A stretch of DNA of 63,567 nucleotides, counting the filler, from Stramenopiles sp. TOSAG23-6 (lineage: Eukaryota), in assembly GCA_900128565.1 (NCBI GenBank). It is 15 parts of 15 records of this genome, joined end to end, with 100 filler letters (N's around TTAATTAATTAA, not from the genome) between each part and the next. Parts side by side here need not be neighbours in the genome. Positions count along the whole stretch, not along the records: positions 38,299 to 42,435 come from LT637256.1; 14 more parts are not named here. One strand, written 5' to 3'. Positions 28,156 through 55,295 of the stretch are shown piece after piece (position 1 is the first letter of the stretch; every line of letters starts with the position of its first letter). The translations under genes and the position numbers were made by a program. The notes under the pieces are model-generated. The model was not told the DNA's origin, searched no databases, and saw nothing but the letters and a program-made list of their open reading frames with translations.

Positions 28156-29712
28156 TTAACCAATCATTCCAGAGTCTCCAGCAAGAGTTTTTAATCGTAA
28201 TTTTATGTGATGTAAATGTTCACGAGGATTTTGAATATTTATTCTCTTTGAAGATGATGTTGAACGTTTCTTTTTGTCTGTCTTTTTGTCTTCTTTTCTA
28301 CAAGTATGAAAATTATTTAAAACATGAGAATCACTCATTTCCCAATCAAATGATTCATCGTTTTTCGTGTCTTCTACAAATGTTTCTCCATGTTTTGTGA
28401 AAAAATATGGTTTAAGTAAAAAAATATCATTAGGTATGAAATTTGGTATAAAAAAAAAACAAAATTCAATTTGAAAACATACATGCTCAAGAAGAGTTTT
28501 CATTGAATATTCAAGTGCATAAGATTTCATTTTCTCACGGCTAAGTTCATCTTGTAATCTTTGAAATGTCAAATGAGCATCATTTGGATCATGACAACCA
28601 AACGAGACTTCCCATTTGATTAAACGCTCTTCACGTTCTGCGAGCTCAAAAAGCAGGCGTTCCTCTGCATCTAATGGACTTTCGATATCGTTTTCTTTCC
28701 GTATACGTGCTTCCTGCAATTTCATTTGATACCTTGCTTGAACTTTACTTTTACGCTGTTTATCTAAGGGTACTGCTGAGCGTTTTGTGTCAATGTAAGC
28801 GTCATTTGCATTTGCTTGGTACATTGGCAAAGAATCGACACTTGGCAAAATTGAATCCGTATCGATGTTTGTACCAGACAAATATCGTGTTTTCTGAGGG
28901 TCAATCCCATCCCAAAAATAGTCCTTGACTCTATCTCTCTCTCTCTCTAATGTAACCGTTTTAAATATAGTATCTACCCCTTCTTCCTTATGATGAAGGC
29001 CTTGCTCATACTCCATCATTTTGTTTTCAAATAATCTTTTCTCATGAGCTCTTGATTTAGCTTTATCATTTTGTTTCTCCATCGCCCGTTTTTCTCGAAT
29101 TTTCATTTCTTTATTGTTGTTTTCTTCATTTCTTCTCATTTTTTCAAGAATTGCCAGTTGTGCTTGTCCTTGTCCTTGTTGAATTTCCAATAGATTTTGT
29201 TGTCCTCCCAACAATAAATTTTCTTCTGTCTTTAACAAGGCTGTGGTTTTCTCTCTTTCTTTCTCCAACTCTGATAAAAGTTTTTTTGACTGTTCTTCTT
29301 CTTCATTCAAAAATTTCAAAACTTTCAAAAATTTCAAAATTTCAAAATTTTTTTTTTTTTTTTTTTTTTGTGCTCTCTCCAATAAAAGTTGTTGTTCATT
29401 CCTTTCAATCGCTAGTTCTCTCTTCAGAAGCATTTGCCTTTCTTTTTCGTCCTTGGAATGTTTCATTCTTTCCAATAAAAATTTCTCTTCTTCTTTTAAA
29501 AAAGCTACATTTTTGTCCCTCTCTCTCTTCAAAACAAGTTTTGCGTCCCGTTCTTGATCTCTCTCCGATAAAAGTTGTTGTTCATTCCTTTCAATCGCTA
29601 GTTCTCTCTTCAGAAGCATTTGCCTTTCTTTTTCGTCCTTGGAATGTTTCATTCTTTCCAATTTCTCTTCTTCTTTTAAAAAAGCTACATTTTTGTCCCT
29701 CTCTCTCTTCAA
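28156..29712 (-). CDS. Coiled-coil repeat protein, 3' part; in-frame family intron at 28390-28482
   Basis: Tandem E/K/R-rich repeats; GAGCAT|GTATGT...CAAAACAT|GGA. Confidence 0.7.
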   Translation of the reverse strand: MKRERDKNVAFLKEEEKLERMKHSKDEKERQMLLKRELAIERNEQQLLSERDQERDAKLVLKRERDKNVAFLKEEEKFLLERMKHSKDEKERQMLLKRELAIERNEQQLLLERAQKKKKKKNFEILKFLKVLKFLNEEEEQSKKLLSELEKEREKTTALLKTEENLLLGGQQNLLEIQQGQGQAQLAILEKMRRNEENNNKEMKIREKRAMEKQNDKAKSRAHEKRLFENKMMEYEQGLHHKEEGVDTIFKTVTLERERDRVKDYFWDGIDPQKTRYLSGTNIDTDSILPSVDSLPMYQANANDAYIDTKRSAVPLDKQRKSKVQARYQMKLQEARIRKENDIESPLDAEERLLFELAEREERLIKWEVSFGCHDPNDAHLTFQRLQDELSREKMKSYALEYSMKTLLEHVCFQIEFCFFFIPNFIPNDIFLLKPYFFTKHGETFVEDTKNDESFDWEMSDSHVLNNFHTCRKEDKKTDKKKRSTSSSKRINIQNPREHLHHIKLRLKTLAGDSGMIG

Positions 29713-33956: not shown

Positions 33957-34411
33957 NNNNNNNNNNNNNNNNNNNNNNNNNNNNNNNNNNNNNNNNNNNN
34001 TTAATTAATTAANNNNNNNNNNNNNNNNNNNNNNNNNNNNNNNNNNNNNNNNNNNNACAATAAACGTGGACGGAGAAGAAGTCTCTCTCATTGGGATCGT
34101 GAAAACTTCAACTCAATGGTAAGTCCGAACCCAAATAACCCAAATTTGCGTGGATTTGTAACCTATGGAAATCGTTTCACGTCACCAAATCCATTGGCAT
34201 CAACTTCACCTACAGTTGTTCCACCTTCCTCAGGAAAAATAAATTCTTTATCAAATGGATTTCGTTCTCTCAGAAGAAGAGCATCCTGTTCAGCATTACC
34301 AAGACCTAGCAAAAGCCATCAACGTGCTCTTAATCTTTCAAAGGAGACATCTTCGAATGAGACTAGAGGTAATGATGGACTTCCGAAGACGATATCAGAC
34401 AAGATACTCCA

Positions 34412-35815
34412 ATGAATGCAGCTCTCAAATATAACACAAATGTTACCTCGAATAGCGAGGTGACCCAAATAGCAAATTCAAATATAGATCGGCGTTCAAG
34501 AAAAGATAATCGTAGCAGTGTCAATAGTAATAGTTCAGTACCACTAAAAGTAAAGCAAAAAATGAAAGCAGAATGTGCTGAAAGTGATGCGCGACTATTT
34601 AGCGATATAACAAACAATATGAAAATGCAAGGAATTGAACTTTTATGTATAGATTGGGATAAAACTTTTATTCCAAGACATACTAAGAATAATTGGTATG
34701 CAGGACCAGAGGAGCTTTCGCGTGTTATACGACCAACTATGATATCTCTAGTCCGCGCCGCAGTAAAAAGTGATCTTAAAATTGGAATAGTTACATTTTC
34801 AACTCAAATATTTCTCATAAAAGAAACCATGAGTATCGCATTCCCCGACGTTGATCCCAATAGTTATGTTGTAAGAGGATGCAATGAAGACGGCCATTGG
34901 CAGTCAACAGATGAATTTATAATGTGTTGCGCACATGAAATGTTCCCTAAATTGGCAGAAGCCAATCAGCAAGAAACTACGAATAGATGTTCTATGTTTT
35001 CGCCTGACAAAACATTAAATGGCCCAAAAAACTTCGGTAAGCTTTTGCATATGTGTATGGTAGCTGAATGTCACCAAAATAGAAATAGATATATAGAATC
35101 TACTAAAAATAATGAAGAAAATAATTCGATGAATAGTTCAAATATGCAAGGTGTAAGTACACTGAAGCGTCGTGCAACTTGTCCTGGTAGGGTCAAGTCA
35201 AATATAATGGACATTGAAGGTTACCAAGATGACACTGGCAAACAAAACGAAGAAGTCCCTGTCTTATCACAAAGTAAAAGTATGGATACTATCGACACTC
35301 GCAATGCATTAATGCCATGTGTTATGAGGGATCATTCCAATAATGAATTTGCATATCGAAAGGACGTGCAAAACAAAAAGTGTGCTACAAATAATTTATC
35401 TTTGACAGCAACAAAACCTGTAAAGCCAGGTAAAGAAAACATTTTACGACCAATGAAAGTTGACGCATCGAAAGGTTACCCTCGACAAGCTTTTACACAA
35501 AATAAGCGAAGTTTACCAGCAAATACAAGAGAAGCTGTTGAGTCTACAAATGTTGTCGATGAGAGTCGTGATATCATTAACCTTGAGAAGACAGATGATC
35601 CTAGTGAGAGTAGTAGTATCATTGAACGAAAACATGCGGTTAATGTAAAAGAAAATGTATCGCAATGGAAAGCACACGAAATCGTGCTCATTGATGATGA
35701 TGAAAATAATATCCGTATAGCAAAGAAACATGGCGTGCATTCATTCACTTGTCCAGATACATGTGGCCGTCCTGAAGAACTCATTCGAGCTCTTCAGCAA
35801 GCATATAGAATGTGA
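34412..35815 (+). CDS. HAD-like hydrolase domain protein; probably extends upstream through ORF 34116-34415
   Basis: LLCIDWDKT, IGIVTFS, GKLLHM, IVLIDDDENNIRIA. Confidence 0.75.
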   Translation: MNAALKYNTNVTSNSEVTQIANSNIDRRSRKDNRSSVNSNSSVPLKVKQKMKAECAESDARLFSDITNNMKMQGIELLCIDWDKTFIPRHTKNNWYAGPEELSRVIRPTMISLVRAAVKSDLKIGIVTFSTQIFLIKETMSIAFPDVDPNSYVVRGCNEDGHWQSTDEFIMCCAHEMFPKLAEANQQETTNRCSMFSPDKTLNGPKNFGKLLHMCMVAECHQNRNRYIESTKNNEENNSMNSSNMQGVSTLKRRATCPGRVKSNIMDIEGYQDDTGKQNEEVPVLSQSKSMDTIDTRNALMPCVMRDHSNNEFAYRKDVQNKKCATNNLSLTATKPVKPGKENILRPMKVDASKGYPRQAFTQNKRSLPANTREAVESTNVVDESRDIINLEKTDDPSESSSIIERKHAVNVKENVSQWKAHEIVLIDDDENNIRIAKKHGVHSFTCPDTCGRPEELIRALQQAYRM

Positions 35816-36155
35816 TTCTTTGATATCAAAACGAATAGTATCAATTGATTTCGTGTGGGTTTAAAAAAACTTTAAAAAAAATACCGAATATTTCTTTTAT
35901 TCTAACAGTACAGCATCTCCAAGTATTTATGATATACGAATAAAAAGTAAAAATTTCATAAATATACAATAGTTATTATAATTTTCTATAGCAAATTAAA
36001 ACTTTTTGAAGTTTGGATTCGTTAGCTAAGGAAATTGATATATAAAAAATCGATTGTANNNNNNNNNNNNNNNNNNNNNNNNNNNNNNNNNNNNNNNAGA
36101 ACATATTTTACTCTTATTACTACGATTTATAAGCGTACTTCACTTGAAAATGAGT

Positions 36156-37122
36156 TCATTCAGTTTTTGCTTTCTGTTGCTTTTCACGAGAGTCCATATA
36201 GTCCATTAAACCAGTCCATAATACCGTAAATAACGTACCTTGTAGACCATTTGCGAGAATTCGAGTTTTTAAACCACGACCAAACAGACCAAACAAACCG
36301 TCTTTCTTAATAACCTCTCTTACAGCATCTGGATACGAAATTGGTCGAGTAAATGTCTGTTTTGTTGTCTTTGTAACCCGAATTGAGTTTGACACGCAAT
36401 CAGACACCACGNNNNNNNNCTGGTATTTTTTCTCTAAGTAAATTATAGGTTCCATACCATGGATAATGTCCGGCAAACGTTGCACCGCATGCTCCCAAAG
36501 AACCATGCCATAAGACTCTAGGTCCACCAACTTTGACTTTATTACCCAATTTAGAGAGTGCTCCTTTCCCTTCAACTTGCATCATCGTTTTACATGCATC
36601 AATCGGCATGAGTACAATACGCCATGATGCTGCTGCGGTAGAAGCTGCTACCGTCTTTGCTAAGGAAGGAAGATCTTTTGTCTGTGGTAGAGTGTTCATA
36701 ATAACATTCATGCCTTCGTTTGCAGCTGTATCTCCGAAACGAGAAAGTGGCCCTTGGAAAACTACACTTGTTGTTGTTCCATATCGGTATTGGTAGTTCA
36801 TTGTCGTTCGCATCCACATCAGTGAACCAACCTAAACTATGAAAAATATCGAAGACCCTGAAACAGACATGAGAAAGATTAACTTTACAAAATAAGAAAA
36901 AACGACGCTTTACAGCACCATTTGAAATCAGATGGAAATATTATAGATGTTAGGGGAAGTCGTGGGAACAAAAGTTAGGCTTCAAAAAGTTAAACGTACC
37001 TGAAGAAGCATGGCTACACTTCCAGCTGTGCCACCTCTAAGTGCCCTCTTTTTTGCATTTTCTAAAATTTGGTTCCAGTCTATTTGTTCCACTTCGCTTA
37101 CAGGAGATGGTAACTTTGACAT
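36156..37122 (-). CDS. Mitochondrial carrier (SLC25)-like protein; exon 1 37122-37000, exon 2 from 36831
   Basis: ALRGG.AG..AM.LQ|V.SLMWMRTTMNYQYRYG, QGPLSRFGDTAAN, MPIDACKTMMQV, SNSIRVTKT; frame break at an N gap. Confidence 0.9.
36832..36999 (-). other. Canonical GT-AG spliceosomal intron, not of the repeat family
   Basis: CTTCAG|GTACGT...ATAGTTTAG|GTTGGT; 168 nt, no family motifs, in frame. Confidence 0.9.
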
Positions 37123-37905
37123 GTTTATCTATTAATGGAGAAGAAAATTGAAGGTGGAATGCAAAATCATTCAACAGAGTTTGGAACGCCGGTGTCAATG
37201 CAGATTTTGAAGCAAATCAACCAATGCCGACAATTTCAAATTGATGTCGACGAAATCTTTTTTGAAAAATATCTTTCGAAAAAGAGTCAGTAAAAAAATA
37301 ATTTCTATCTATATATATACAACGATTTTATATTATCACTGATCATACTTGATCGGGATCATTTCTAGATTTATTTCTCTTACTGAACCCTCCCAAGTTT
37401 GACAAACTCTTCATGTCAGATGTGGAAGTATAGGTAGGGTCTGTAAGTGAGATGTCCGCTGCGAGGGGTCTGAAAATGACTCGTCGTAGGTAGATGACCG
37501 ACTCCCCATTTGCTACGCGCAAGTGCTGGATGCATGACCCTTGCCATTCCGAAGGCTACTATTTTTAGACCCCCTTGCTGATTTCAGACTTTTTTCATAT
37601 TTTTTTATATACCCAAACTTCACTGGTAAGGAAAATTGTACCAAATGTGGTATAGAGAAGGGTGCGTGGCAGAATTTCGACTGATATATGTGCCCTTTTG
37701 GCCTGGTGAAGTGGTTATAGTTGTTACAGCTTCACTTGTCCAAAGCCCGTGTTCGGATCCTCCTAAATCCGGCGTTTTTTTTTTTTTTTTTCGATTTTTT
37801 GAGATTCAGCACTGATGTCAATTGATACAACAGAAACACTGTGTCCTGGAAGTACCTGTAGTACGACACTGCTTGTACCTATTGTGCAACTATAATATCA
37901 CATCG

Positions 37906-38198
37906 ATGTTCCATTCTGTGGTTTGTGGACGTAATCTTTGTACGAGATATTACACTATGTCAGTACATCGTAACATCTTCACAAGTATTAGTATTCAAAG
38001 ATTTCATCTACGTTCAGCATGCCCAAACAAACCCATCGCAAAAAGTAAAAATATTCTTTTTAAGCAACATGCAAGGTTGTCTTCAAGTCGACCTCTGAAT
38101 AAGCGTTTTGAGGGAGGTGTTGCTGGTCGAGTTAGCTGGTTCCCTGGACATATGCACAAAGCCCAGAAACAACTCGCAAAGACTGTCCGACGAGTTGA
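37906..38198 (+). CDS. MTG1: Mitochondrial ribosome-associated GTPase (MTG1/RbgA family), N-terminus only
   Basis: Targeting-like leader followed by SWFPGHMHKAQKQL. Confidence 0.75.
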
Positions 38199-38389
38199 NN
38201 NNNNNNNNNNNNNNNNNNNNNNNNNNNNNNNNNNNNNNNNNNTTAATTAATTAANNNNNNNNNNNNNNNNNNNNNNNNNNNNNNNNNNNNNNNNNNNNTG
38301 GAAAAATATTTAAAAAAAAAAAACTTAAATTTGTTAGGTACAAAATTTTTATAAAAAAATAAATTCGAAATTGATAAAATAAAACGTAC

Positions 38390-41300
38390 ATATTTATGTG
38401 AGATCTAGCACGGGGATATGCCGATGATATTTAGTGAAAAAATATTTCGAAATATTATTTTTGTTAGTACGAAATTTTCATACAGTAAACAAATAAAAAT
38501 TAAAATTGATAATAAAAATTCGTTAGGTACGAAATTTCGTATGAAAAAAATTAAAATTGATAATAAAAACGTACATGGTCTACCCTGAACTTTTGTTGAA
38601 ATCTTCTGAGGAAATACAGGAATTATTCTAGTTTTATTTTTAGTATTTTTAGTATATGCTGATGAAGGCCTCTTATCTTTGATTGGGATGCGTTCCCTAG
38701 AAGAAAAAGTGTTTGTGGTAGATGAAGTATGTATTTTGGAAAAATATTTCAAAAAAAAATCGTTAGGTACAAAATTTACTATAAAACAAAATTCGAAATT
38801 GAAAAAAAAAAAAATACATTTCTACTATTATATCTCGGATGCGCTGAGACTGGTCTATTTCTTCTAGATCGAGCTCTTTCGACAGCTGATGTATTTTGGA
38901 AAAATATTTCAAAAGAAAATTCGTTAGGTACAAAATTTCGTACGAAAAAAAAATTCGAGTTTGAAAAAAAATAAAACAAACATGATCGTGCAGTAGTTGA
39001 TCGTACAAGTCCATAATCATCATTGTTATTTGTGTTTTGCATGTATTGTGAAAAATATTTTTTTTGTAAAATTTGTTAGGTACAAAATTTCGTATGAAAA
39101 AATTTCTTAGGTACGAAAATTAATGTTGAAAACGTACATGAATTTCTTGTGTTGTGAAATCTTTGTCTTGTACGTTTCTTCTATCGCTATGTATTTTGGA
39201 AAAATATTTCAAAAAAAAAACTAAAATTTGTTAGGTACAAAATTCCGTACGAAAAACAATTTCGAATTTGAAAAAAAGTAAAACATACATATCAATCTTT
39301 TCTCCCAACATACCACGTGCTTTTTTGAGTAAATTAGCAGAATTATTTGATATTCGATATACATCATTTTCATCATCATCGTCATTAGGGTTAGGGATTG
39401 GGTGCACATCAATTTTACTCTTTTGTGATGTATTGTTTATGTCCGTGAATGCTTCCTTAGAACCAGTGACGTCATACGATGGATTTTCATGTTTTTCATC
39501 GTTACCATTGTTACCCCTATTCCTGTTGTATTTGTAGAAACCATTTACAGTAATATTTGACATATTTGGAGACTTGGTGCGATGTAAAGGAGCTGTCATT
39601 GGTCGGGAACGACGAAATTCTGAATTATTATTTCGAGATACACATGTATTGTGAAAAAAAAAATATTTTTTTTTGTTAGGTACGAAATTTCGTATGAAAA
39701 AAAAATCGAAATAGAAATTAAAAAAAAAAACGTACTGAGCGCTAATTGACTTTGTGCAAGGTTAGCTTCAAGTTCATTATTCCTACCTTGTAATATTTTC
39801 TGTCGTATATTCGTTTTAGCTACTCTTTTTTGCATTTGTTCAACTTCTACTCTTTGTTTTGATAATTTCGATTTCCAAAAAGCGAGATAATGTATTTTGG
39901 AAAAATATTTCAAAAAAATCTAAAAAAAAATGTTAGGTACAAATTTTCGTACGAAAAAAAAATTCGACTTTTTTGTAAAAAAAAAAATAAAACATACATG
40001 TTCGTTACTATTTGCAATTACTTTGACTTCTGCAGCAGAAAGTGGTCTTGCCCCAGAAAGTCTCTGTTTCAAATTGTTTCTAGGATTCTTTATTTTACTC
40101 ACACTATTGCTTTCATCGGACTCCAAAGTTTCCATCTCTGCCTTTCGTCTTTCCTTTTCAGCCCGTGTATTTTGGAAAAATATTTCAAAAAAAAAAAACT
40201 AAAATTTGTTAGGTACAACATTTCGTACGAAAAAAAATCGAATTTGAAAAAAAAATAAAACATACGTACTGCTGCAGCCTTTCGACGTGCCTTTAAGACA
40301 CCCAGTTCCTTGCGCAGGCTTGCTGTTAACCTTGTTTCTTTTGTTAGTTGTTGCGTACATTTCTTCATCTTTGCTTGTAACACATTTACTTGTTTCTTCA
40401 ACCTTTCAGCAAGTTTTTCTGCACGAAGTCTTTTTTTTTCGGCAATGGATACACGATTAGCTTTCAAGTTAAACCGAAACGATCGAATAGTTTCCTTTGC
40501 TTGATGAAGTTTACTTGCAAGCTTTGCATTTTGAGCTTCTATCATTGGAAGTTTAGATAAATCCACTTCATACCCTCGAAGCTCTTTATTTTGAGCCACA
40601 CGAAGTCTATGCAATTCTGTGGCGTTTTCTATTTTAAGACTCTTTATTTCATCTTTTAGTTGTGGTATTTCCTTCTGCTGACAAAGGACAAGCTCTTTCT
40701 GTTTCTGGACTTGTTTGACCAATTGTTCCAAGATATCCTGATGAGCTTTGTCTTGAGTTCTGCTTTTTTTTTCAACCTTGGACAGAGCGTCTTCCGCAAG
40801 CTTGGTCCGTTTTCGATAATTTTCGGTTGCTTCTAAAGATTTCGAAAGTTTTTCCTGAATACTTTGTATATCTGCTGTGGAGTTATCAATGCTATTACGT
40901 AATCTACGAGTATGTTTTTCGTGTCGTTCAACAACAGCCCCAGTGTAGTTACGCCTCCAACGTTCCCGTGCTTGTTGGACCTGAGGTCGAACCACATCTA
41001 AAAAGTCGTCTTTTGACATTGCTGCTGCAGACTCTTCTACTAAATTTATTGATGTATCCAACTCTAATATTTCATGCAAAACTTCAAGACCACGTTCACA
41101 TCCCATTATCCTGTTTTCTAGACTAAACTTTTGTCTTTGTGCCACTTTTTTCTGAGTGTTTGCCACATCGCGCTCTTTCGAGACTATTTCAAGTTGTTTA
41201 CGGAGTTTTTTTACTTCTTTTTGTAGTTGATCCGAAATTGTAGACTTTGTTGGTTTTTTTTCTTCAAAAGACTCGCTGTTTTCTTGTACTCCTAAATTAA

Positions 41301-41475
41301 TACTTGATGATGCAATACTTGCAGAAGCATCACTTTTATCTTGAATAGCGTCAGCTTGGAGAATTACCGGAATGGGTGTTGGTAATGTTGAATGTATTTC
41401 TTTCTCCGTTATTGATACTTTCTTCTTCTTTGATACCTTTTTCTTCTTCTTTCCATTTATTGATGTCCTTGGCAT
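38390..41475 (-). CDS. Coiled-coil protein with many short exons separated by about 9 family introns, partial
   Basis: Long first exon 41475-40266, then mostly short exons; RP.SA motifs. Confidence 0.7.
40165..40265 (-). mobile_element. Introner-like intron, GT...AC, with AC direct repeat
   Basis: GCAGTAC|GTATGT...CCAAAATACAC|GGGCT gives AVRAEKE. Confidence 0.8.
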
Positions 41476-41675
41476 AATGAATAATATAAAGAAACAACGT
41501 CCTCAACTCAACTGACTTTAGTATTTTGTTATGAAATTCAAAAAGTCCAATTTTGGGAATGCATCTCTTTTGTTACATGTAACCGTTTTTCAACCGTTAA
41601 AAAAATATAAATTAAGAAAATAAATTAGAAATTCAAAAAAACGTTTATTGTACACGACTACAATCATTTTTGAAA

Positions 41676-42375
41676 TTACATTCGTTGAACACCAGATGTT
41701 CTGCGTCCAAACAAATGTATTTGGTCATCTAATGGTGATTTAATTTTTCTTCGCGATATTGCTTCAAAACTAAGAGCAAGAATATTTCGTGTAGATTCAA
41801 TATCAATGATTCCGTCATGTATTGTATGAAAATATCTTTAGAAAAAAAATGTTAGGGTTAGGGTTAGGATTTTTGTACGAAAATATTTTTAGAAAAAAAT
41901 TGAAAGTGAATGTTGAAAGCATACATCCCATAAACGACCTGTGGAATAAAGAGCACTTCGAACATTGCTCTCTATATGTTCTTCTTCAGTTTTGTTATTG
42001 TTTTTCTCATTTGCTTTCATTATTTTTGCTGTTTTTTCAGAACTAATTGAGGCATGTATTTTGGAAAAATATTTCAAAAAAAAAATCGTTAGGTACAAAA
42101 TTTTTATAAAAAAATAAATTAGAAATTGAAAAAAAATAAAACATACATTTGGCCACATAAACAGAAATGAGGGACTCATCCCTCTACCTGACATGATAAA
42201 AGTATTGTGAAAAAATATTTTTTTTGTTTTTACTTTTTTAGTAAAAAAAAATCGTTTGGTACAAAATTTTGTATTTAAAAAAAGAAATTCCCATGAAAAC
42301 GTACAATTACCACTTCCAACACTTTCTCCGATAATTAATGTAATTTTCGGTATTCGAACCGTCGCTACTGCGCTC
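41676..42375 (-). CDS. MCCC2: Methylcrotonoyl-CoA carboxylase beta-like, C-terminal part (exons 42375-42305, 42199-42147, 42053-41925, 41816-41676)
   Basis: PKITLIIG.S.GSGNFIMSGR..SP.FLFMWPNASIS...YSTGRLWDDGIID...TR..L...GVQRM*. Confidence 0.88.
41817..41924 (-). mobile_element. Non-canonical intron GT...AT in MCCC2
   Basis: TGGGAT|GTATGC...CAATACAT|GACGGA restores WD|DGIID exactly. Confidence 0.92.
42054..42146 (-). mobile_element. Non-canonical intron GT...AT in MCCC2
   Basis: CCAAAT|GTATGT...CCAAAATACAT|GCC restores WPN|ASIS. Confidence 0.92.
42200..42304 (-). mobile_element. Non-canonical intron GT...TT in MCCC2
   Basis: GGTAATT|GTACGT...CACAATACTT|TTATC restores GNFIMSGR (family GNYGMCGR). 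Confidence 0.9.
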
Positions 42376-42535
42376 ATGGATTTTGGAAAAATATTTCAAA
42401 AAAAAATCGTTAGGTACAAAATTTCGTACGAAAAANNNNNNNNNNNNNNNNNNNNNNNNNNNNNNNNNNNNNNNNNNNNTTAATTAATTAANNNNNNNNN
42501 NNNNNNNNNNNNNNNNNNNNNNNNNNNNNNNNNNN

Positions 42536-44456
42536 TTATACCATTTATATCATTAGGGTTAGGGTTATCATTAGGGTTAGGGTTATCATTATCATTCATA
42601 TTATTAGGGTTAGGGTTATTATTAGGGTTTATATCATATATATCTGTATCTATATTTGTAACTGATGAATTTTGAATTGTTGTACCTTTTTGTTTTTGAT
42701 TTTCGTCTTGTGCTGAAAAAACTGAATTCGTAGTTAATTTCGTACCTAATGGAATTGTCTGTTCTGCTTGTTTAATTAGTTTATCATTTTTTCTTTCTAT
42801 TTGATTGTATTTATCAATTTCAACATCTTTAATTATTTCATCATTTTTTTCTTCTATTTGATTGTATTTATCAATTTCAACACCTTTAATTATTTCATCA
42901 TTTTTTTCTTCTATTTGATTGTATTTATCAATTGCATTTTGAACCCTTTTTTCTGCTGCTGTTAATCCATTTTCATTTTGATTTTGATTTTCATTATGAT
43001 TTTGATTTTGATTTTCATTATAATTTTCATTTTGATTTTCATTATGATTTTGATTATAATTTTGATCTAAATTTCGTAATAATTCCAGTGTATTTTCTAC
43101 AACAGCATTATATTCTTCACCATCAAAAAATGAATCATCTAATATTGATGAAGAATCAGAATCATCTTCCAATGTAGAAGTGGCAGAATCAACAACGCCA
43201 ACATTTAATGTATTTTGTAAAAATATTTCAAAAAAATTTTTGTTAGGTACAAAATTTCGTACGAACAATAAATTGGAATTTGAAAAAAAATAAAACATAC
43301 ATTGTTCTGCAATTTCTGAAATTTTATTTGTCATACTACTTGTTGTTGTTGTTGTTGCTGTTGTTACTGTTGTTGTACTAGTGGTAGTTGGAGTAGACAT
43401 ATCCTGTATTGATGTTTTGGATATTTTGTTTTTTATTTTTTTTTCAAGATTTTGTTCATTTATTTTTTTTGTTGAAAGTATTTTGTCATTCGAAGAAAAT
43501 TGATTATTATCAAGGCACTCATTTGCAAATCTAGAATTGAGATTTTTTGTGAGTGTGAATTCAATATTACTGACATCAAATTGAGATGATTCTAATTTTG
43601 ATTCTAACTCTGCAAATAATTGAGCCAAATGATTTCTTTTCCATTTTGAAGAAGATTTCGTGTTTTTTTCATCCTTTTTTTTTTGAAATGGCGTTTTTGT
43701 TGATAACAGTTTCGTATTTTTTTCAATATTCTGATCATTTCCCCCATTGTGTATACTATTTCTAGTAGTAGTAGTAGCAGTAGTAGCACTATTAACCGTA
43801 GTAGTATCAAGGGAATTGGTATGATTTGATAGTTTTGTATAATTTATATTTTGTTTTTCTTGTTTTTGATACAATGTACTAGGGTTAGGGTTGGGAGGTG
43901 ATCGTAGAGACATTGGAATAGATGCAAATGAAGAAGGTGAACCTCTTGATGCATTAAGGAATGATTTCGATAACCATGATTTCACTAAAGACCCTTCATC
44001 AATCAGAGATACTACTTTTTCATTATTTTGATCATTTCGTGTTTCTTGGAATTCCATACTCAAGGTAGGGTTAGGGTTAGGCGTAGATAATCCACTATGA
44101 GTTGTAGTAGGGTTAGGTTTAGACATTTGTACACCTCCTAGAATTGGTGATAAAATATTATTACCAAAAATATCTGGACGATTTTCATCATTAGATTGTT
44201 TTTTAACTTTTCGACGTACTTTATTCACTAAACTAACCATTCTACGTATTTTTTCTTCTTTTTTCGTGTCATCTCGATTGGCTAAAAAATAACGTTGTAA
44301 TTGAACATTTGGTGATTCTTCCCTCCACACAACCCCACCACGTGCACCGGCTAGATTATGATTCATAGTATTTATAACATTTACGTTTGATTTATTACCA
44401 TTTTGGGACAACGATTCGACATCTTGTCGTGGTGTTAACGTTACCATTTTGCCCAT
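42536..44456 (-). CDS. Low-complexity N/T/K-rich hypothetical protein, partial; in-frame family intron at about 43208-43300
   Basis: 658-aa ORF with internal repeats and NPNP tracts. Confidence 0.6.
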
Positions 44457-45346
44457 TTTGTCCTTTTTGAGAAGAGATTTAGAAGAAACAGTGTCACGTT
44501 GTCCTTTTTTTCTCGATTGAATTGGAACATCCTGTTTTGCCCGTGGTTTACTTGTATTTGATGCTTTAGTGGCGTGCTGTTTTTCTATCGATAAAATTTG
44601 GGCGTTGGAGGCGTTTGGTGTTTTAGAACTAGACTGTTCTATAGTGTATAAGTTATTTCTAGGTTTCTTATTTCTGATTGGTGTTGTTTTGAATGTAGAA
44701 GGGTTGTGTGGAGGGAAGAATCACCAAATGTTCAACGAGATTTCGTTCGAGTAGTAGTTGCAAGAGCCTTTGACTTTCGAACATTACATTTTGGTTTTGA
44801 TTGTGGTTGTTCAGTAGATGAGTGAAAATATTTTGCTATAGACTCTTCATTTGAACATATTTTGGGCATTGCAAGATTTGAATTTCTACGAATTCTTTAA
44901 CAATCAAAAAGCTTTATTATTTGAAATGAATGTAACCTTTAATCAATTCATGTGAATAGAATGACAGAATAGATTAAATGTCTCCACCAATAAATAAAAG
45001 AACAGCGATTTATTGAGCGTACCACAGTCTTCCTTTTTTGGGAGAAGTTCCAAGGTTGCTTTTTGATCAAAAATCAATCAAAAAATGCATCTCAAATCTA
45101 AATCAATCATCAAAAATTTCGATTGGATTGGATTTCGAAATTTGGTTCAGATTTCGTGTCGACGTGTGATAATTTGGCGGTCTCTTGCGGAAGGACACGT
45201 GGTCGGTTGTTCGGTCGGAACTGGCCGTCCTCGGTATCTGTTGTTCCGCATAGTTGTTCTTTGTTAGAGCATTTTTTAGCAGATAGACCCGACCCATACC
45301 CGTCTGTGCACGTGATTTGAGATTGGATACGATACAAAAATACACC

Positions 45347-46666
45347 ATGAAAGTAATTGCGCTACTGCTGTCTTTTTGTATTCATTACGCAATATCGGGG
45401 GAAACAAACGAGAAACATGTAAGAGAAACGTATGGACATCTTTTCACAATTGTAGAACACAGCTTTCAAAGTGGTTCAGTATCTGAAGTATATCTTGCAA
45501 CTGATATAAAGACAAAACAGAAAGTAGTACTGAAATTGTGCCGTTTCAAAGATCAAGAGTGTACTCGGGATTTAGTAAAGCGAGTGTTGGAGCCAAGAGA
45601 AGGACCTGTTTGGAATTTGGATGGAACTCAAGTTGAAAATTCGGATGGTAAGCTTCGACTTGAAATGGTGCCGGGGAAAAATATAAAGGAGGAATTCGAA
45701 ATTGAGTACGACGCTATGAACGCACTAAAAGATTGTAAAAATGTAATTGGAATTACTAATCTCCGCGGCTATGACGAATTAAGGGATGCACATGGTGTCC
45801 GTATAATTGCAACGGATTACTATGAGACTGGGGATCTAAAGTCTGCCAAGATTCCCGACTTGGATAAGGTTGGCCTTCTTCCAGATATAGCGGAAGGTCT
45901 ACACTGCATGCACCAAGAAAACTGGGTTCATATGGATGTAAAAGAAGATAACATTTTTATTAAAAAAGACGATAACGGCGGATACATTGCATTACTTGGA
46001 GATCTTGGTCTTGCACGTAAANTACATGAACAAGAATATAATGGGAAAACCTATATGGTTGATGAGAAAGGAAAACGACCAAGGAAATCAAATTTTTTGA
46101 AGTGGTTATTATCTCGGTTCGAAGCTGCCAATGCCACAAACGCTCCAATACAAAGATTCGATAATAAAAGCTTTGCATTTATAATCTTTGAAATCTTAAT
46201 TTCAATAGCAAACCGTGAGTTTGTTCTTGATAAACATTTCGTTGATCCCTGGGCCAAAACAGAATATGGAAAGTTCTTAAACGGGTCTCGCAAATTGGAA
46301 TGGGTACTCAACTTGTGTTCAAAACGCGTTCTTAACGACGACACCCGAGTTAAGGTTGCAATAAACATTTTCGAAAAACTTACAAAAACGGAAATACCAG
46401 AAGACTTTGGTGAAGCTGAGTGCAAGATATTACCATCACCCAGACCACTACCAACCCTCAGTGAAGACGAGAAAAGATTTTTGATGGATATATGCCCAGA
46501 TAAACACAATCCAAAAGTTTTAATTGGTGGTGATGATGGTGTTCTTAAACCAGCAACACCACCAGCAACACCACCAGCTGCAACACCACCAAATGGAAGT
46601 AGTATTAATGTGATTGGTTTTGTGTCTGTGCTTGTTCCTATTATTCTTTCCTACTTTCTTCAGTAA
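45347..46666 (+). CDS. Protein kinase-fold protein with signal peptide and hydrophobic C-terminal tail
   Basis: SGSVSEVY, VVLK, HMDVKEDNIF, LGDLGLA; N-terminal MKVIALLLSFCIHYAISG. Confidence 0.85.
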   Translation: MKVIALLLSFCIHYAISGETNEKHVRETYGHLFTIVEHSFQSGSVSEVYLATDIKTKQKVVLKLCRFKDQECTRDLVKRVLEPREGPVWNLDGTQVENSDGKLRLEMVPGKNIKEEFEIEYDAMNALKDCKNVIGITNLRGYDELRDAHGVRIIATDYYETGDLKSAKIPDLDKVGLLPDIAEGLHCMHQENWVHMDVKEDNIFIKKDDNGGYIALLGDLGLARKXHEQEYNGKTYMVDEKGKRPRKSNFLKWLLSRFEAANATNAPIQRFDNKSFAFIIFEILISIANREFVLDKHFVDPWAKTEYGKFLNGSRKLEWVLNLCSKRVLNDDTRVKVAINIFEKLTKTEIPEDFGEAECKILPSPRPLPTLSEDEKRFLMDICPDKHNPKVLIGGDDGVLKPATPPATPPAATPPNGSSINVIGFVSVLVPIILSYFLQ

Positions 46667-46772
46667 GAAATNNNNNNNNNNNNNNNNNNNNNNNNNNNNN
46701 NNNNNNNNNNNNNNNTTAATTAATTAANNNNNNNNNNNNNNNNNNNNNNNNNNNNNNNNNNNNNNNNNNNNA

Positions 46773-48031: not shown

Positions 48032-50700
48032 TTATTTACGTTGAAGTGATAAACGAGGATTAACACTAGTTTGACTTCTTTGTAATACAACGGGTGGTGG
48101 TGCACTTCCACTACGCAAAATACGTCTCTCAGAGTTAAGCCCCTGCATAGTTTGACTTCGATTAAGATGAACTGACGGGGGTGGAGGTGGATGCAGTTGA
48201 TGATTACTATTATTATTATTATTAACTTCTAAATAAGAATGAACAGTATTTAGAAATTGTTTTGGGACTACATGTATTTTGGAAAAATATTTCAAAAACC
48301 AAAGAAATCGTTAGGTACAACATTTCGTACGATAAAAAAATCGAATTTGAAAAAAAAAAAATAAAACATACATTGTTCCTTGCAGATTCAGGTCCAGCGA
48401 ACCTTACAAGATGTTGCAAATCTATAATACAACGTTGAAATCGTTCACGAGCATAAGCAACACCTTCCCCAGCACCCCATCGAAAATGCCAACATCCTCT
48501 TCCTCTTGGAGCTGGCCCACATTCTCTGAAACTTCCTTTCGTCACAAGCATTTGTCGTTGTACAGTGCTAAGTAAAATAGTTTTATTATCACGACTTCTT
48601 TGTTTTACCGTTGCTAACCAAGTCGGTGCAATTCCATTAGGCGTCGATCTTGACATTCGTAACAGGAAAGTTCCTTGATTTTCCCCTGAATCTTTTAATA
48701 TTTCACTATATTGACTCACTGGAAGCCATCCATGAAGAAGTTTTGTTGGCTTTTGTATAACCCATAAACCTTGAATTTCTTCAATCATTTTCATCCAAAG
48801 TGTCCAGAAATAGACCCAAAATCTTTCAAATTCAGCAAATGTCACTATCAAATCAATATCATTTGATTTATTATTTATATTATTTATATTGGTATGATCT
48901 TTAGATGTTTTTTTTGGAGGGAACCATTTTGGGTATCCATCAGCGACTAAACCGAAGAGTTCAGATGGAATCAGAGGGCGTTGAGTCGATGCTAAAGGAA
49001 ATGATGAATTAAAATGATTACATAGACTTTGGGCAAGAACAGACCATTGTGTAGTCGTTGTTGTAGTCATTTGAGACCAAAATGCTGATGCTGTATTTGC
49101 AATAGGATATGGAGTGGTGGGTATAACTATAGACTCTGTATTATTGCTAGCATTTCCTATTTTTGATACAGTATTATGAGAATCAAGAGGGAATGGATCT
49201 GATGATGATCGATATTGTATTGGTTTTTGAAAATTAGCAACCGTTGATCGAATTAAAGATATATAAGCTTCTCTATCATCAAGTAAATTTGTATGTTTTT
49301 GTAGTGCAACTTCATACACAGCTTTAGGTATACCTTGAAATGCTTTAATTAAATTACTTTTTGAAAATCTTTTAAAATCAGTCATTTCGGTCCAATCATT
49401 CCATTCATCAGAATCCATATTTTGTTAAACAGTATCTTTACACTTTAAAATTTATTAGGTAAAACATTTTGTTACAAAAAAAAAATACATTTGAACAATA
49501 TATTTGAACAATACATTTGAAAAACAAATGTTACAAGTAGGTACAAAATTTGTTTTACGAAAAAACAAAAAAATCAACTTCAAATGATGTCAATAAAAAC
49601 GTACATATCATCAATTTCATCACTTCGCATTTGATCCATTTCTATCAAAGTTAACATATTTGAGCATAAAGAATCAAACAACTCTGCACAATGAATATCA
49701 TGGAGACGTCCTATATGTACCACTTTATGAGGGATCAAAGTAGGAGGGGATACACATGTTATAATTACTTTTACATATCGTGTACTTGATAATTTTTGTA
49801 AAAAATCTGAAAAACATCGAGTAAATATTTTTTCTGTAAAGATTTCGTGATATGAACGAGGTGTTTCTATATTATTCTGACTAGGATATACTAAATTTTT
49901 GTTTGTAAATGTACCACTAGGATGACCATGTATTTTGCTTTTACTCTCTGGACTATTTACATTATTTACAGTTGTATACAACAAGTGTTCACATGTATTG
50001 TAAAAAAAATTAAATTCGAAATTTGTTAGGTACAAAATTTCGTACGAAAAAAAAAATAAATTTGAAATTCATAATGAAAACATACAACCATCTATAAATA
50101 AAAGTAATTTATCACTAGAATCTCTTCCAAACATTTTTTGCATTTCTAATAATAATTTTTGGGCACAAAGTATCCCTTTCCTATTAATTCTATTATCTAT
50201 ATTTATTTGTCCGGATTTTTCATTTTTATTACCATTTTGAAGATTTGTTTCATCTTGAATATTTTGTATTTTAACTTTACGTGATGTATTATTCAGTAAT
50301 ATCTGTGAAAAAAATGGTACAAATTGTGATTCACATAACTCACTTATTGCATCGGTCATACTTAGTGAATAACCATATGTTTGTTTTGTACTTATTTGGT
50401 ATTCCTTGACTTCATGTATTTTGTTTAATATTTTACACATTGTTTTTTTTTTGTTAGGTATGCATTTTGTAAAAAAACAAAAAACAAATCCTAAAAAAAT
50501 AAACTTTTGAAATGAATGATGAAAACATACATGTACTGAAGGCAAACGCAATGGTCCATTAAATGTCACCATTCGTGCATGTTTGAAATGACCAATTCTT
50601 TGACCAATATACTCAATAGACCGTAAAGCGAGTGTAGTTTTACCAATTCCCCTATTACCCACAATCGCAATACATTGACAATTTTCAGATCTTCGAGAAT
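48032..50700 (-). CDS. Multi-exon protein with a P-loop (GNRGIGKTT) and a C-terminal SH2-like domain, partial
   Basis: Walker A, LLLFIDG (Walker B-like), and HGWL...GTFLLRMSRSTP.GIA.TW. Confidence 0.65.
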
Positions 50701-51115
50701 TTACACAGGTAGCAAGTTCATATATATATTGTGAAAAAATATTTTTTTTTTTTGGTTTTTGGAGTACAAAAAAATGTTAGGTATGAAATTTTCATCGTAA
50801 AAAAAATAATAAAATCCATGATTGATGAAAACAAAAAAAAACAAAAAAATATAATAAAATCCATGATTGAGAAGCTTATATATCTTTAATTCGATCAACG
50901 GTTGNNNNNNNNNNNNNNNNNNNNNNNNNNNNNNNNNNNNNNNNNNNNTTAATTAATTAANNNNNNNNNNNNNNNNNNNNNNNNNNNNNNNNNNNNNNNN
51001 NNNNTTTTTTTTTTTTTTTTTTTTTTTTTTGAAAAATGTGTTAGGTACAATATTTCGTATGAAAAACAAACACAAAAAAAAAAAAAAAAAATCAAAATTC
51101 ATATTGAAAACGTAC

Positions 51116-51864
51116 ATAACATTCAGATCACTAGTTGTCTTTTTTTTAAGGGTTTGAACAGAAAGAACATTTGAAAAAGGTCCCCATCCTTTGGCATTGA
51201 CTACTCGAACTCTTAATAAATAAGTTTGTTGAGATTTTAACCCAGTCAGGAGATATTCTTGACGACCTACAATACGTACCGCTTGCCATGCACCAACAAA
51301 TCTAAAACCAAATTGTAACTCAAAGTGCAAATTAGAATTGTCTTCAACTTCATCCACATCATCAGCTGCAGGAGCCCATCTTACAAATATAGTATTTTCT
51401 CCGCGTTCAATAACTGTAAGACCTTTTGGTTTATGAGGGGCCCGTTTGACAGACAGTGCCTTTGTGACTTCTTTTCGGGCAAGAAAATTTTGTAGTCGAT
51501 CAATTACTGCCATGGTATTTCTGTCTTCTTTACATTGTTGTGCGTATATTCTATGGAGATCAGCAAACTCCAAGATATCCTGTTCAGTTAATACGCGACG
51601 AACATTACAGAGTTCGCCTTCTCTTTTCTTTAACACTTCTAAAATGTGACTTCCTCTTTCCTCCGAAACACCAGGTTTCTGAGAAACAATGCTACTTATA
51701 GTTGGTGCAGGCTTCATCGCACCCGCTGGTACAGGAACAAAAGAATTTAGTTCAGCCAAAGCAGGCGGATCTTCCATTGGTTCAGTTACAATGGATGTAT
51801 TAACATTGGCAGAAGATGAAATAGACAAAGAAGGAGTTTCGGCTGTTTGAGAAACATCAGGCAT
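51116..51864 (-). CDS. Fibronectin type III domain protein, 5' exon
   Basis: APHKP.GL, IFVRW, LTGLK..QTYLLRVRVVNAKGWGPFS. Confidence 0.85.
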
Positions 51865-52384
51865 TTAAAAAACAAAGGAATCACGAGGCAAAATAAGCCC
51901 CAGCTAATTCGACTACTACTCGAGTTTGATAATTATTGATTCCTTTTTTAAAACAGATTGAAGTATAATTCAAAATAATAAATATATTAGACTCTAATGA
52001 ATACACTACCACAGCAAAATTCTATTATTCTTCGTAATAGGAAGTGAAATTGTGTGATTACTCTCTTCTTTTCGCTCTCGAGTGGTCATAATAATTTTAT
52101 ATCATGACTTCGCTTAATAATAATAATAATAATCGACTTTTATTTTTTTGAGTCTAGGGTTAGGGTTACCGAACTATAATGAAAGTGACTTGAGTGAAAT
52201 TCAGAATTCTTAGTAACAATATAAACATTATAATCATATTGAAAAACTCTAAAAATTATACAATATGTTTATAGTTATATATATGGCACTCCAATAATTT
52301 GTGTGCTGCAAGGATATTTTTCTTTCTACCTTCTACTTCTAGTCAAAGAATTAATAATCTTAGTCTACACCATTATAATTGTAA

Positions 52385-53509
52385 TTACTTTTTTTCACCA
52401 CCACTGTCACCGCTTTGAGTAGCATTTCCTTTGCCACCTCTGCTACCTTTGCCGCGGCGGCCACCGCGAACCCTGCGGTTTTTTGTTCTTTGTACGACGG
52501 GATTTTTTGTTCTTTGTACGACGGGATTTTTTGTTCTTTGTACGACGGGATTTTTTTTTCTTTGTACGACGGCATTTTTTTTTCTTTGTACGACGGGCTT
52601 TCTTAGTGCGACGGGCTTTCTTAGTGCGACGGGCTTTCTTGTTTTAAGTACGACGGGCTCGGTCGTAATAGTGACAGTTTCTCCCCTAATTGTGATACCC
52701 ATACACCTATCAGCTGCATCTTGTTCTTTAAAAGTAACAAATGCTCTCCCCCAAAACCCATTTATTTGTTGTAAAGGATTCAAATCCTCTATTGTACCAC
52801 CACAGTTCTCTTCTAAAACAGCACGAAGATATGCTTTGAAAAGTTTGCGTCCAGAATTATTGGGTCTGAAGCGGGAGGCTTCAGGTGTAGTGTGTTGTAG
52901 CTTTACGAATACTTTACGTGGATCGTCACGTGCAATTGGATGATACGGTTCTGCTGTCCGTGGAAATTTTGGAACTGTAAATTTTAGAGGTGCTTCTGCA
53001 GCAGACGCTATGGGATCAGCGTTTTTCTTATCTTCCTCTAAAAGATCCTCCGCCATTCCGAAGGCGAGTTCGAGGCTTTGTTCGAGGATTTCTTGTTCGA
53101 GGCGTTCGAGGCGTTGGCGTTCTTGTTCGAGCCGTTGGCGTTCTCGTTCGTCGCTGCTGCGTTTCCAACTCCCTTCGTCACCGGTTTCATCAATGACACT
53201 AGACGGCGGCCCCCAAATGTCCGCCTCCCCCGTTAGATGCTGGATTGACAGCGGTGAAGGAGATCTCACTGGTGAGATTGTAGGTGTCCTCAGTAGTGTA
53301 TTAGTTGCCTGAACAACATTTTCATCAGCAGGAAAAGTAGCGGCATCACCACCACCAAATGCACCAAATCCACCATCAGCAGCACCAGGGTAAAAAGCGT
53401 CTGCATCAACATTTAAATGCATAGCATTAGCATCTTGAAAGATGCCATGCATAGCATTAGCAACTTGATAGATGCCCATAAGCACCATCAAAGATATAGA
53501 AGTCTTCAT
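52385..53509 (-). CDS. RRM-like protein with putative signal peptide, basic tandem repeats and an RGG-like tail
   Basis: RKVFVKL (RNP2-like), GRAFVTF (RNP1), repeats PVALRK and PVVQRTKN, RGGRRG. Confidence 0.7.
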   Translation of the reverse strand: MKTSISLMVLMGIYQVANAMHGIFQDANAMHLNVDADAFYPGAADGGFGAFGGGDAATFPADENVVQATNTLLRTPTISPVRSPSPLSIQHLTGEADIWGPPSSVIDETGDEGSWKRSSDERERQRLEQERQRLERLEQEILEQSLELAFGMAEDLLEEDKKNADPIASAAEAPLKFTVPKFPRTAEPYHPIARDDPRKVFVKLQHTTPEASRFRPNNSGRKLFKAYLRAVLEENCGGTIEDLNPLQQINGFWGRAFVTFKEQDAADRCMGITIRGETVTITTEPVVLKTRKPVALRKPVALRKPVVQRKKNAVVQRKKNPVVQRTKNPVVQRTKNPVVQRTKNRRVRGGRRGKGSRGGKGNATQSGDSGGEKK

Positions 53510-53776
53510 ATTGTTGATATATATGTAATATTTACCGAATGAACAACAACCCCGCATCCCTAAAATTATAACCGCCGAGCGCTATATATTTTTTGAGTTC
53601 AGTTCCTCGCGAAAATTTTTCTTTTTTCGTGTAAAATATTATGTCGATTAGATTCTCTCATGACAAATTGTAGAAAATATTTAACTTTAGTTCAATAGAA
53701 CGCTACTAGTAGTCACATTCATTTTTCTAGTAGTACAAAAAAACTATACTACTTATCGTCGAATTATCTTGGTAGC

Positions 53777-54490
53777 ATGGCTCTCGTACCATTTTCTTAT
53801 AATAGCCCATTTGCATCTGATAAGCTACAACTACCCGTGAGACTATTTAGATTTGGGGACCGCACTGTGAATATGCAGCAGGGTTGGCGAGCAGATGGGA
53901 AAGGAGGTTCTCAACTAGGCTTTGGCAAAAGTGTTTATGATGCTAGTTTTGTACTTGCAGATTTTGTGTACAATCATTGTAAAGATTTTCTCGGGAGACG
54001 TGTCGTAGAGGTTGGTGCTGGTTTAGGTTTAGTGTCTATTGTAGCTTCAATTTGTGGGGCTTCTGAAGTGTGTTCTACTGACGGGGACTCTGAGCTTGTG
54101 GCTTCAGATGGGCTTTTATCCATTAACCTCGATAGAAATCTTACAAAAACAGAACGCAAGCGAGTGACTACTTCCCAGTTGATATGGGGAGATAAAAAAG
54201 CCACGGCTGCACTACAACCGCCTTTTGACTTTGTTGTAGCATCTGATGTCGCGGCTTGTCCGTATGCGGACTCACTGGACCTTCTAGCCTATAATCTTAA
54301 ATCTCTTAGTGGTCCAAATACTATAGTATATTTATCATACAAACCTAGAAATTCTTTAGAAAAAAAATTCTTTAAAAAGATAAATACTTTTTTTCATATG
54401 GAGTTGGTATCAAACTCTTTACTTCACAAAGATTTTGTACAGTCTGATATTGAATTATTTCGTTTACGCCTTCGAGACAATGTTAAATAA
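53777..54490 (+). CDS. METTL21-like (Methyltransf_16) protein lysine methyltransferase
   Basis: G.SVYDASFVL, VVEVGAGLGL, STD, L.WG, FDFVVASDV. Confidence 0.9.
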   Translation: MALVPFSYNSPFASDKLQLPVRLFRFGDRTVNMQQGWRADGKGGSQLGFGKSVYDASFVLADFVYNHCKDFLGRRVVEVGAGLGLVSIVASICGASEVCSTDGDSELVASDGLLSINLDRNLTKTERKRVTTSQLIWGDKKATAALQPPFDFVVASDVAACPYADSLDLLAYNLKSLSGPNTIVYLSYKPRNSLEKKFFKKINTFFHMELVSNSLLHKDFVQSDIELFRLRLRDNVK

Positions 54491-54646
54491 TAATTAATGT
54501 GTATATAAATACTAGTAAAATATAATTTTTTTTTTCTAAATTTTTTTTTATACCAAACAAATTTCAAAGGCAATTCATTTGATTTTACAAAATCATACTT
54601 TAGTTTTACACAGTGTAAAGTCAATTATAAAGTCAAAAATATATCT

Positions 54647-55065: not shown

Positions 55066-55295
55066 ATGTATTTTGGAAAAATATTTCAAAAAAAAATCGT
55101 TAGGTACGAAATTTCGTATGNAAAAAAAANNNNNNNNNNNNNNNNNNNNNNNNNNNNNNNNNNNNNNNNNNNNTTAATTAATTAANNNNNNNNNNNNNNN
55201 NNNNNNNNNNNNNNNNNNNNNNNNNNNNNGTTAGGTACAAAATTTCGTACGAAAAAAAAATCGATTTTTTTGTTAAAAAAAAAAATAAAAAATAC

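Follow-up and report, generated by a model that had tools for sequence, protein, structure and literature searches.

Introner-like repeats that appear to be removed without a 3' AG from the end of an MCC-beta gene in a stramenopile genome

The sequence analyzed here (the window) is a stretch of 63,567 bases from the assembly of Stramenopiles sp. TOSAG23-6 (GCA_900128565.1). Its 15 contigs of 4,116-4,163 bases stand in descending order, each separated from the next by a linker (44 N, TTAATTAATTAA, 44 N; e.g. 4164-4263 and 42436-42535), so neighboring contigs are unrelated. G+C content is 24-40%. Contig 38299-42435 carries, on its minus strand and close to its high end, the 3' end of a gene for methylcrotonoyl-CoA carboxylase beta (MCC-beta, MCCC2-type). 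Four exons occupy 41676-42375, and removal of the three stretches between them leaves one frame that is open for 130 codons to a TAA stop (Table 1). An original prediction, made from the sequence alone, held that taking out these stretches (GT..TT for intron 1, GT..AT for introns 2 and 3) rebuilds conserved MCCC2 motifs without an indel, that none of the three acceptors has an AG, and that a frame intact to the conserved C-terminus argues against a pseudogene. What it missed is that all three introns, and a fourth at the contig end, are copies of one repeat.

The identity of the gene comes from protein comparison. The joined 130-aa product is 50% identical to P0122 over 113 aa (E 3e-30) and 46% identical to P0124 over 138 aa (E 6e-40). 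In a MAFFT alignment with three homologues (P0121, P0122 and P0124), every junction is free of gaps in each of them, and all share the C-terminal ...RM. Pfam places all three among Carboxyl_trans (PF01039) proteins. MCC beta chains in the PDB match P0124 with E values from 1e-39 to 1e-47 and most propionyl-CoA carboxylase (PCC) beta chains with about 1e-23, though one entry titled PCC beta (9tps) reached E 1.2e-42. The unspliced read-through (window:41925-42374:-) could also serve as a query, because each of the three introns has a length divisible by 3 and no in-frame stop interrupts introns 1 and 2. Its best PDB matches were geranyl-CoA carboxylase (GCC) beta 5ikl (E 2e-4) and MCC beta 8rth, 8j4z and 3u9r. 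Against 8rth_B, query residues 2-24 align with 485-507 and residues 60-77 with 508-525; the flanks abut exactly, and 35 residues derived from intron 1 have no counterpart. That all three lengths are multiples of 3 is probably chance, since the length classes hold 8, 9 and 6 of 23 copies of the repeat. Single exons are too short as queries and gave no PDB or Pfam match. A 150-aa read-through query had no match at E <= 0.001 among longer proteins; raising the limit to E 10 gave two (E 3 and 8.5), P0121 and P0122, which served as alignment partners only. With Pfam it gave only two irrelevant sub-threshold families. An exhaustive protein search with the read-through returned 2 proteins, P0124 among them. 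These comparisons point to an MCC/GCC beta carboxyltransferase of family PF01039, MCCC2-type.

The MCC-beta stretch was found in marine sequencing runs only. Three RNA runs and one DNA run (X3) were compared with it as assembled contigs; X6 and X7 are polyA metatranscriptomes from two studies. One X6 contig (record 17, 195 nt) lies on 42000-41924 and then on 41815-41698, with 77 and 118 letters, and its join 41924->41815 omits 108 nt. One X7 contig (record 24, 290 nt) lies on 41924-42052, 42146-42199 and 42305-42375, with 129, 54 and 71 letters, and omits 93 and 105 nt. Together these contigs bridge all three junctions, with at least 54 letters on either side of each join. In the DNA metagenome X3, an unlikely source of the assembly, record 1 (41500-41978) is continuous through intron 3 and record 7 (42129-42357) runs through exon 2, intron 1 and exon 1 without a difference. 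DNA sources X1 and X2 contain 0.97 and 0.84 of the sampled words of the intron-bearing form. The RNA differs from the window by 41775 A>T and 41934 A>G, two variants that the intron-bearing X3 contig has as well. The three stretches are therefore present in DNA and absent from mRNA. None of the X5 contigs listed bridges any of the three joins, and the parts left uncovered are not evidence. The best-supported joins listed all connect repeat copies in metagenomes and are uninformative on the MCC-beta gene.

The original prediction had proposed RNA across the three junctions as its check, allowing a 2-nt ambiguity. PolyA contigs of two studies show the predicted joins, which differ from its coordinates only by a 1-nt alignment ambiguity where the same letter stands on both sides; the positions and ends it gave were correct (Table 1). 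The alignment agrees with its claims of no indel and of a frame intact to the conserved C-terminus, and the RNA contigs show that the gene is expressed. Its reading of three non-AG acceptors is supported, and the observation is confirmed as real, neither a pseudogene nor an artefact. Two side observations concern the wild population: the X3 contig has a 19-nt deletion at 41647, presumed 3' UTR, and extra TTAGGG-like letters at 41836-41837 in intron 3, whose length is thus polymorphic.

Table 1. Coordinates of the MCC-beta 3' end and of repeat copies on the same contig (window positions)
Feature	Coordinates	Strand	Description and basis
Last coding exon, MCC-beta (MCCC2-type)	41676..41816	-	46 codons and TAA at 41676-41678; aligns with the C-termini of P0122, P0121 and P0124; covered by RNA contig X6 record 17
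Intron 3	41817..41924	-	108 nt, GTATGC...ATACAT; three CCCTAA units, each yielding a CTAAC motif; nhmmer match 41812-41929; absent from RNA X6 record 17, present in DNA X3 record 1
Coding exon	41925..42053	-	43 codons, ends ...RLWD; covered by X6 record 17 and X7 record 24
Intron 2	42054..42146	-	93 nt, GTATGT...ATACAT; near-consensus element copy; nhmmer match 42051-42150; blastn-short matches across the window; absent from X7 record 24
Coding exon	42147..42199	-	53 nt; PDB alignment, query 59-77; X7 record 24 and DNA X3 record 7
Intron 1	42200..42304	-	105 nt, GTACGT...ATACTT; upstream exon ends TT; nhmmer match 42199-42307; absent from X7 record 24, in DNA X3 record 7 with 0 differences
Coding exon	42305..42375	-	71 nt, phase 1; PDB query 2-24 against MCC/GCC beta; X7 record 24 stops exactly at 42375
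Fourth element copy, 3' part	42376..42435	-	ends ...ATCCAT; nhmmer 42372-42437, model positions 39-105; putative acceptor, placed from sequence
Nine more same-strand element copies	38299..40267	-	neighboring gene(s), not MCCC2; nhmmer; open-frame blocks switch there

Copies of the repeat are abundant, and most are oriented with the genes that hold them. A blastn-short search with the four intron pieces gave 210 high-scoring segment pairs over the window. An nhmmer profile built from 20 copies gave 83 matches; 61 of them fall in the 49.7 kb that remain when duplicate contigs are set aside, about 1.2 per kb. All 13 matches on the MCC-beta contig are on the gene strand. The strand of the element is the same as that of the longest flanking open frame in 54 cases, opposite in 6 and tied in 1 (p about 1e-10). 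When copies are removed from GTAYG to ATACWT, the longest upstream and downstream frames are in phase for 16 of 21 (chance 1/3, p 7e-5), and for 9 of 14 copies whose length is not a multiple of 3. The 21 copies were picked by hand from 49 regular-expression matches; duplicates on repeated contigs, nested alternatives and opposite-strand matches were dropped. Pairwise identity among copies has a median of 0.67 and a range of 0.52-0.85. In short, the repeat has the many similar, sense-oriented genic copies that are expected of introners or miniature inverted-repeat transposable elements (MITEs), and the exact removal from mRNA expected of introners is seen in RNA for 3 copies and in frame continuity for the 16.

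The density of the element is uneven. Contigs 38299-42435 and 1-4163 carry 10-13 copies in 4.1 kb, and contigs 21311-25467, 34057-38198 and 42536-46671 hold long intron-less genes with 0-1 copies. According to nhmmer, many contigs start or end inside a copy (42372-42437, 38299-38391, 21311-21366 and 16896-16951, and further 17050-17119, 55062-55130, 55227-55299 and 63510-63566). The repeat therefore probably breaks the assembly, which would explain why the upstream MCCC2 exons lie outside the window: the fourth intron is truncated by the contig end at 42435, leaving the last 130 residues of the protein.

An element is 90-125 nt long. After GTAYGT at its start come Ts, then a central block that is strictly conserved and contains TACCTAAC, a T run, and a terminus of ATAC plus two bases. 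GTAYGT is present in 20 of 20 aligned copies; these were selected on GTA[TC]G, and only positions 6 onward are independent. CTAAC occurs in 19 of the 20, 32-54 nt from the end and with a T run after it. There is no AG between CTAAC and the end in 13 of these 19 copies, and there is one in the other 6. The predicted lack of an AG holds at the three MCC-beta junctions, with the caveat that introns 1 and 3 contain an internal AG past the branch-like motif. RNA shows that the one in intron 3 is bypassed, and that in intron 1 is unused too. By sequence, the element has the consensus 5' GT site, a branch-like motif and the pyrimidine tract of a U2-type intron, and it lacks AG as its last two bases: the MCC-beta introns end in AT, AT and TT if cut at GT, or in AC if the cuts are shifted. 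An Rfam scan of the whole window gave 0 matches, and thus no small nuclear RNA.

The two bases after ATAC repeat the last two of the upstream exon in 17 of 21 copies read by hand. Automatic end-calling, with three ends visibly mis-set, found the duplicated dinucleotide in 16 of 23 copies; two slid controls had it in 1 of 23 apiece. Of the TT-ending copies, the three near-consensus ("core") ones are each preceded by an exon that ends in TT, and a fourth (28302-28482) follows AT. The duplicated pair looks like what a 2-nt target-site duplication (AT or TT) would leave, a feature expected of introners. The inverted repeat is GTAT/ATAC only, 4 nt, or 6 nt with the duplicate.

Some copies and motifs stand apart. 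A diverged copy at 15530-15652 on the minus strand was missed by nhmmer; it keeps the termini, with GTATGT at the 5' end and ATACAC at the 3' end after an exon that ends in AT, and its interior differs, with TACTAAT as the branch-like motif. Telomere-like TTAGGG/CCCTAA runs (41845-41865 in intron 3, 56620-56741 and 42545-42640) occur both inside introns, where CCCTAA creates CTAAC, and within several open reading frames (ORFs), as Asn-Pro repeats (PNPNP strings).

We propose that four copies of an introner- or MITE-like, intron-generating repeat interrupt the MCC-beta 3' end. Each copy contributes GTAYGT as a yeast-like 5' site, a T tract and, some 32-54 nt before the copy ends, the branch-like TACCTAAC; it terminates in ATAC plus two bases duplicating the last two of the upstream exon. 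The element and one duplicate are lost exactly from the pre-mRNA, and the reading frame is thereby restored. An AG is thus unnecessary at the 3' end; instead, the 3' cut seems to be positioned with reference to the conserved terminus of the element itself. We put the probability that the MCC-beta 3' end is split by repeat-derived introns that are removed exactly and independently of AG at roughly 80%. The cutter is presumably a U2-type spliceosome, and the element may well spread as DNA.

Several points weigh against this proposal. Each junction has one Logan contig, at a depth of 2.6-2.9, and these are contigs rather than raw reads. The listing of joins covers the best-supported ones, and it cannot show that DNA run X3 lacks the joined form. 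The counts of termini are partly circular, because the sets of 21 and 20 copies were hand-picked from the 49 matches. The frame test failed in 5 of 21 copies, and for 6 of 61 the longer frame is on the other strand, some of these being boundary errors. The terminal inverted repeat amounts to GTAT/ATAC and is lost in GTACG copies. The cutting machinery is not evident from the window, and no lariat or branch point was found among the low-depth contigs. Finally, the taxon is assigned by way of a FolD gene that lies on a different contig, whose only link to this one is a weak partial element match (21311-21366).

RNA cannot place the cuts within the repeated bases, because the exon/intron pair is duplicated. 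Introns 2 and 3 could be read as GT/AT, TG/CA, AT/AC or TA/TG, and intron 1 as GT/TT, TG/CT or TT/AC. We favor GT/WT (W, A or T) over WT/AC, given that all six positions of GTAYGT agree with the U2-type 5' consensus. Alternatively, the same introns could be cut two bases upstream at both ends, as AT/AC (ATGTATG...ATAC), with the TT copies as TT/AC and a constant AC at the 3' end. We consider this unlikely, though it is the strongest of the alternatives. AT/AC is the classic alternative terminal pair, the junction ambiguity of all three introns permits it, and it would make the 3' dinucleotide invariant across copies. However, it turns the six-position match of GTAYGT to the U2-type consensus, present in every aligned copy, into coincidence, and needs TT, CA or AA as the 5' end of some copies. 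U12-type introns have the 5' motif (A/G)TATCCTT and a branch site, TCCTTAAC, near the 3' end (10-26 nt). Our introns share with them, and with U2-type AT/AC introns, non-GT/AG termini, and AT/AC is a possible reading of introns 2 and 3. We rejected a U12-type assignment: ATCC at positions 3-6 is found in 0 of 20 aligned copies, and the branch-like motif lies 32-54 nt from the end. Coding content does not separate the two placements, since copies with an unequal pair (49993-50085, near 15530-15650 and near 14710-14822) give the same amino acids under GT/WT and WT/AC when translated by hand. Further copies whose flanking pairs differ lie at 14425-14515, 39644-39735, 57515-57645, 40162-40267 and 1414-1507. 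Nor is there a signal in which duplicate strays more from AT/TT (by hand, about 4 upstream, 3 downstream and 3 ambiguous).

A further possibility, which we regard as improbable, is non-spliceosomal, structure-guided removal in the manner of euglenid non-conventional introns, with paired ends setting the cuts. In euglenids a stable stem joins the intron ends, and termini are variable with repeated bases at the borders (PMC11282704). The present introns resemble these in their variable termini and in the repeated bases at both borders. ATGTAT (exon end and intron start) is complementary to ATACAT in introns 2 and 3, and the ends are paired in 3 of 5 minimum-energy folds. Yet the folds of five copies with 6-nt flanks are no more stable than shuffles (z = 0.59, -0.82, 0.97, -2.86 and 0.08), end pairing is lost in intron 1 and the GTACG copies, and conservation of GTAYGT, CTAAC and the T tract is what marks spliceosomal introns. 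We rejected hairpin-guided and euglenid-type models on the fold scores and, for the latter, also on the canonical 5' site and branch motif.

Least probable of all is that the transcripts come from an intronless paralogue or from excision at the DNA level, the intron-bearing locus being silent or a pseudogene: contigs rather than raw reads, and best-supported joins that cannot exclude a joined DNA form, leave some room for it, but the intron-bearing form occurs in two DNA sources (X1/X2, and X3 through introns 1 and 3), the RNA variants recur in the X3 contig that bears the introns, an undisturbed frame reaches the conserved C-terminus, and the element splits many other open frames in phase, so intronless paralogues would be needed for all those genes. 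We also rejected ciliate-type internal eliminated sequences: the stretches are present in the DNA of X1/X2 and X3, and their ends are not TA. To our knowledge, nuclear dualism is not known for stramenopiles.

Known introns to compare include the non-canonical introns of Fritillaria, on which Henriet et al. reportedly wrote in 2019, and canonical introners, said to have been described by Huff et al. in 2016. Introns of the larvacean tunicates Fritillaria borealis and F. pellucida are mostly non-GT/AG, with AT as their most frequent 3' end (34% and 44%, respectively; Soo et al., 2026, PMC13326754). They have a duplicated YAY triplet at exon/intron borders, are attributed to MITE-like insertions, and are handled by a U2-type spliceosome with duplicated U2AF subunits (PMC13326754; PMC11282704). 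Like our introns, they are short and repeat-derived, in lineage-specific positions, and are removed exactly from mRNA despite non-AG ends (PMC13326754). Unlike them, ours have GTAYGT, a 2-nt duplicate (AT or TT) and one dominant family, whereas the main classes there are AG/AC and AG/AT with a YAY/TAC triplet, and the host is a stramenopile rather than a chordate. A Fritillaria-type assignment also fails on detail: the 5' end is GT, introns 2 and 3 end in CAT and intron 1 in CTT, and the upstream triplets AAT, GAT and ATT are not YAY as defined there (PMC13326754).

The parasitic dinoflagellate Amoebophrya has non-canonical introner elements with direct repeats of 3-5 nt and inverted repeats of 8-20 nt (Farhat et al., 2021; PMC7789003). 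It too is a marine protist with repeated intronic elements, direct repeats that overlap exon/intron borders, and no GT/AG (PMC7789003). Its inverted repeats form hairpins (PMC7789003), in contrast to the present element, with inverted repeats of at most 4-6 nt, direct repeats of 2 nt and folds that cannot be told from shuffles. Canonical introners are widespread in aquatic protists, including Micromonas and Aureococcus (Gozashti et al., 2022, PMC9860276; 2025, PMC12130899). Like ours, these are high-copy elements that make introns on insertion, carrying some splice signals and borrowing others from the target-site duplication. They differ in giving GT/AG introns or leaving extra bases in mRNA. 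The present case works like known introners and like those of Fritillaria and Amoebophrya; it differs in its host, in its canonical 5' site and branch motif, in a 3' end supplied by a 2-nt duplicate, and in having no hairpin repeats. The non-canonical introners of Fritillaria and Amoebophrya are the closest analogues.

A full-text literature search found no paper on non-canonical introns or introners in marine stramenopiles; supplements and most subscription journals were outside its scope, and intron classes or species relevant to this negative could appear in those of PMC13326754 and PMC9860276. The word "intron" occurs in PMC5778133 in methods text only (gene prediction and read mapping), and it is absent from PMC12614181. 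The main text of PMC9860276 and PMC12130899 has no "MAST" or "stramenopil". The 2025 survey states that families with unfamiliar splice sites were dropped unless transcript or RNA-seq alignments confirmed them (PMC12130899), so an AG-less family like the present one could be missed.

Other contigs of the window bear on the host. Contig 21311-25467 carries the FolD ORF, which is intron-less. Its identity to a record labelled eukprot:GSMAST32 is 94%, compared with 63-76% for the other listed matches. Many of those are unnamed records; the named ones are mostly diatoms (Seminavis, Nitzschia and Amphora) and MMETSP protists. On these matches we rejected a tunicate origin, which the likeness to Fritillaria introns had first suggested. 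The label GSMAST32 may point to a MAST-3-type lineage. Telomere-like TTAGGG units and the marine polyA RNA matches fit a marine stramenopile. P0002, the FolD model of the labelled relative, is without about 16 residues that are in frame at window 23361-24308, possibly a wrongly predicted intron. Contigs 1-4163, 4264-8426 and 8527-12689 have identical ORFs and match patterns, and 51005-55129 and 59452-63567 resemble near-duplicates. A gene at 954-3490, and on the two duplicate contigs, contains 10 element copies in 4.1 kb. Its ORF pieces include the strings QG..S.L and an LIDDFLF-like string, which resemble telomerase reverse-transcriptase motifs; Pfam assigned no family to the two pieces that were searched.

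The repeat has consequences for annotation. In P0123, an 82-aa predicted protein in the public record, about the first 32 residues come from reading through the element, so public gene calls of related sequence include the repeat as protein. Annotation tools that require AG would leave a large share of this organism's genes broken or mistranslated. For uncultured marine protists of this kind, gene sets and completeness figures already in print may be distorted, and surveys built on annotated GT/AG introns would overlook the element family.

A single introner-like family with non-AG ends pervades the genes of this protist. More tentatively, and at somewhat less than even odds, one transposon-like family could be the predominant intron type in the lineage, with AG unread and the 3' cut made at a fixed offset of ATAC plus 2 nt. 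Large-scale escape from GT/AG is known in very few lineages, and each shows the extent of the spliceosome's freedom. On this tentative reading, the mobile element would in effect encode its own scar-less removal, whatever the duplicated bases. Fritillariid tunicates and Amoebophrya would then be joined by a third lineage in which large-scale AG-independent splicing arose independently. The 5' site, the branch-like motif and the T tract remain textbook and only the 3' dinucleotide (AT, TT and perhaps others) is free, which narrows the question to how a 3' splice site can be picked when AG is missing.

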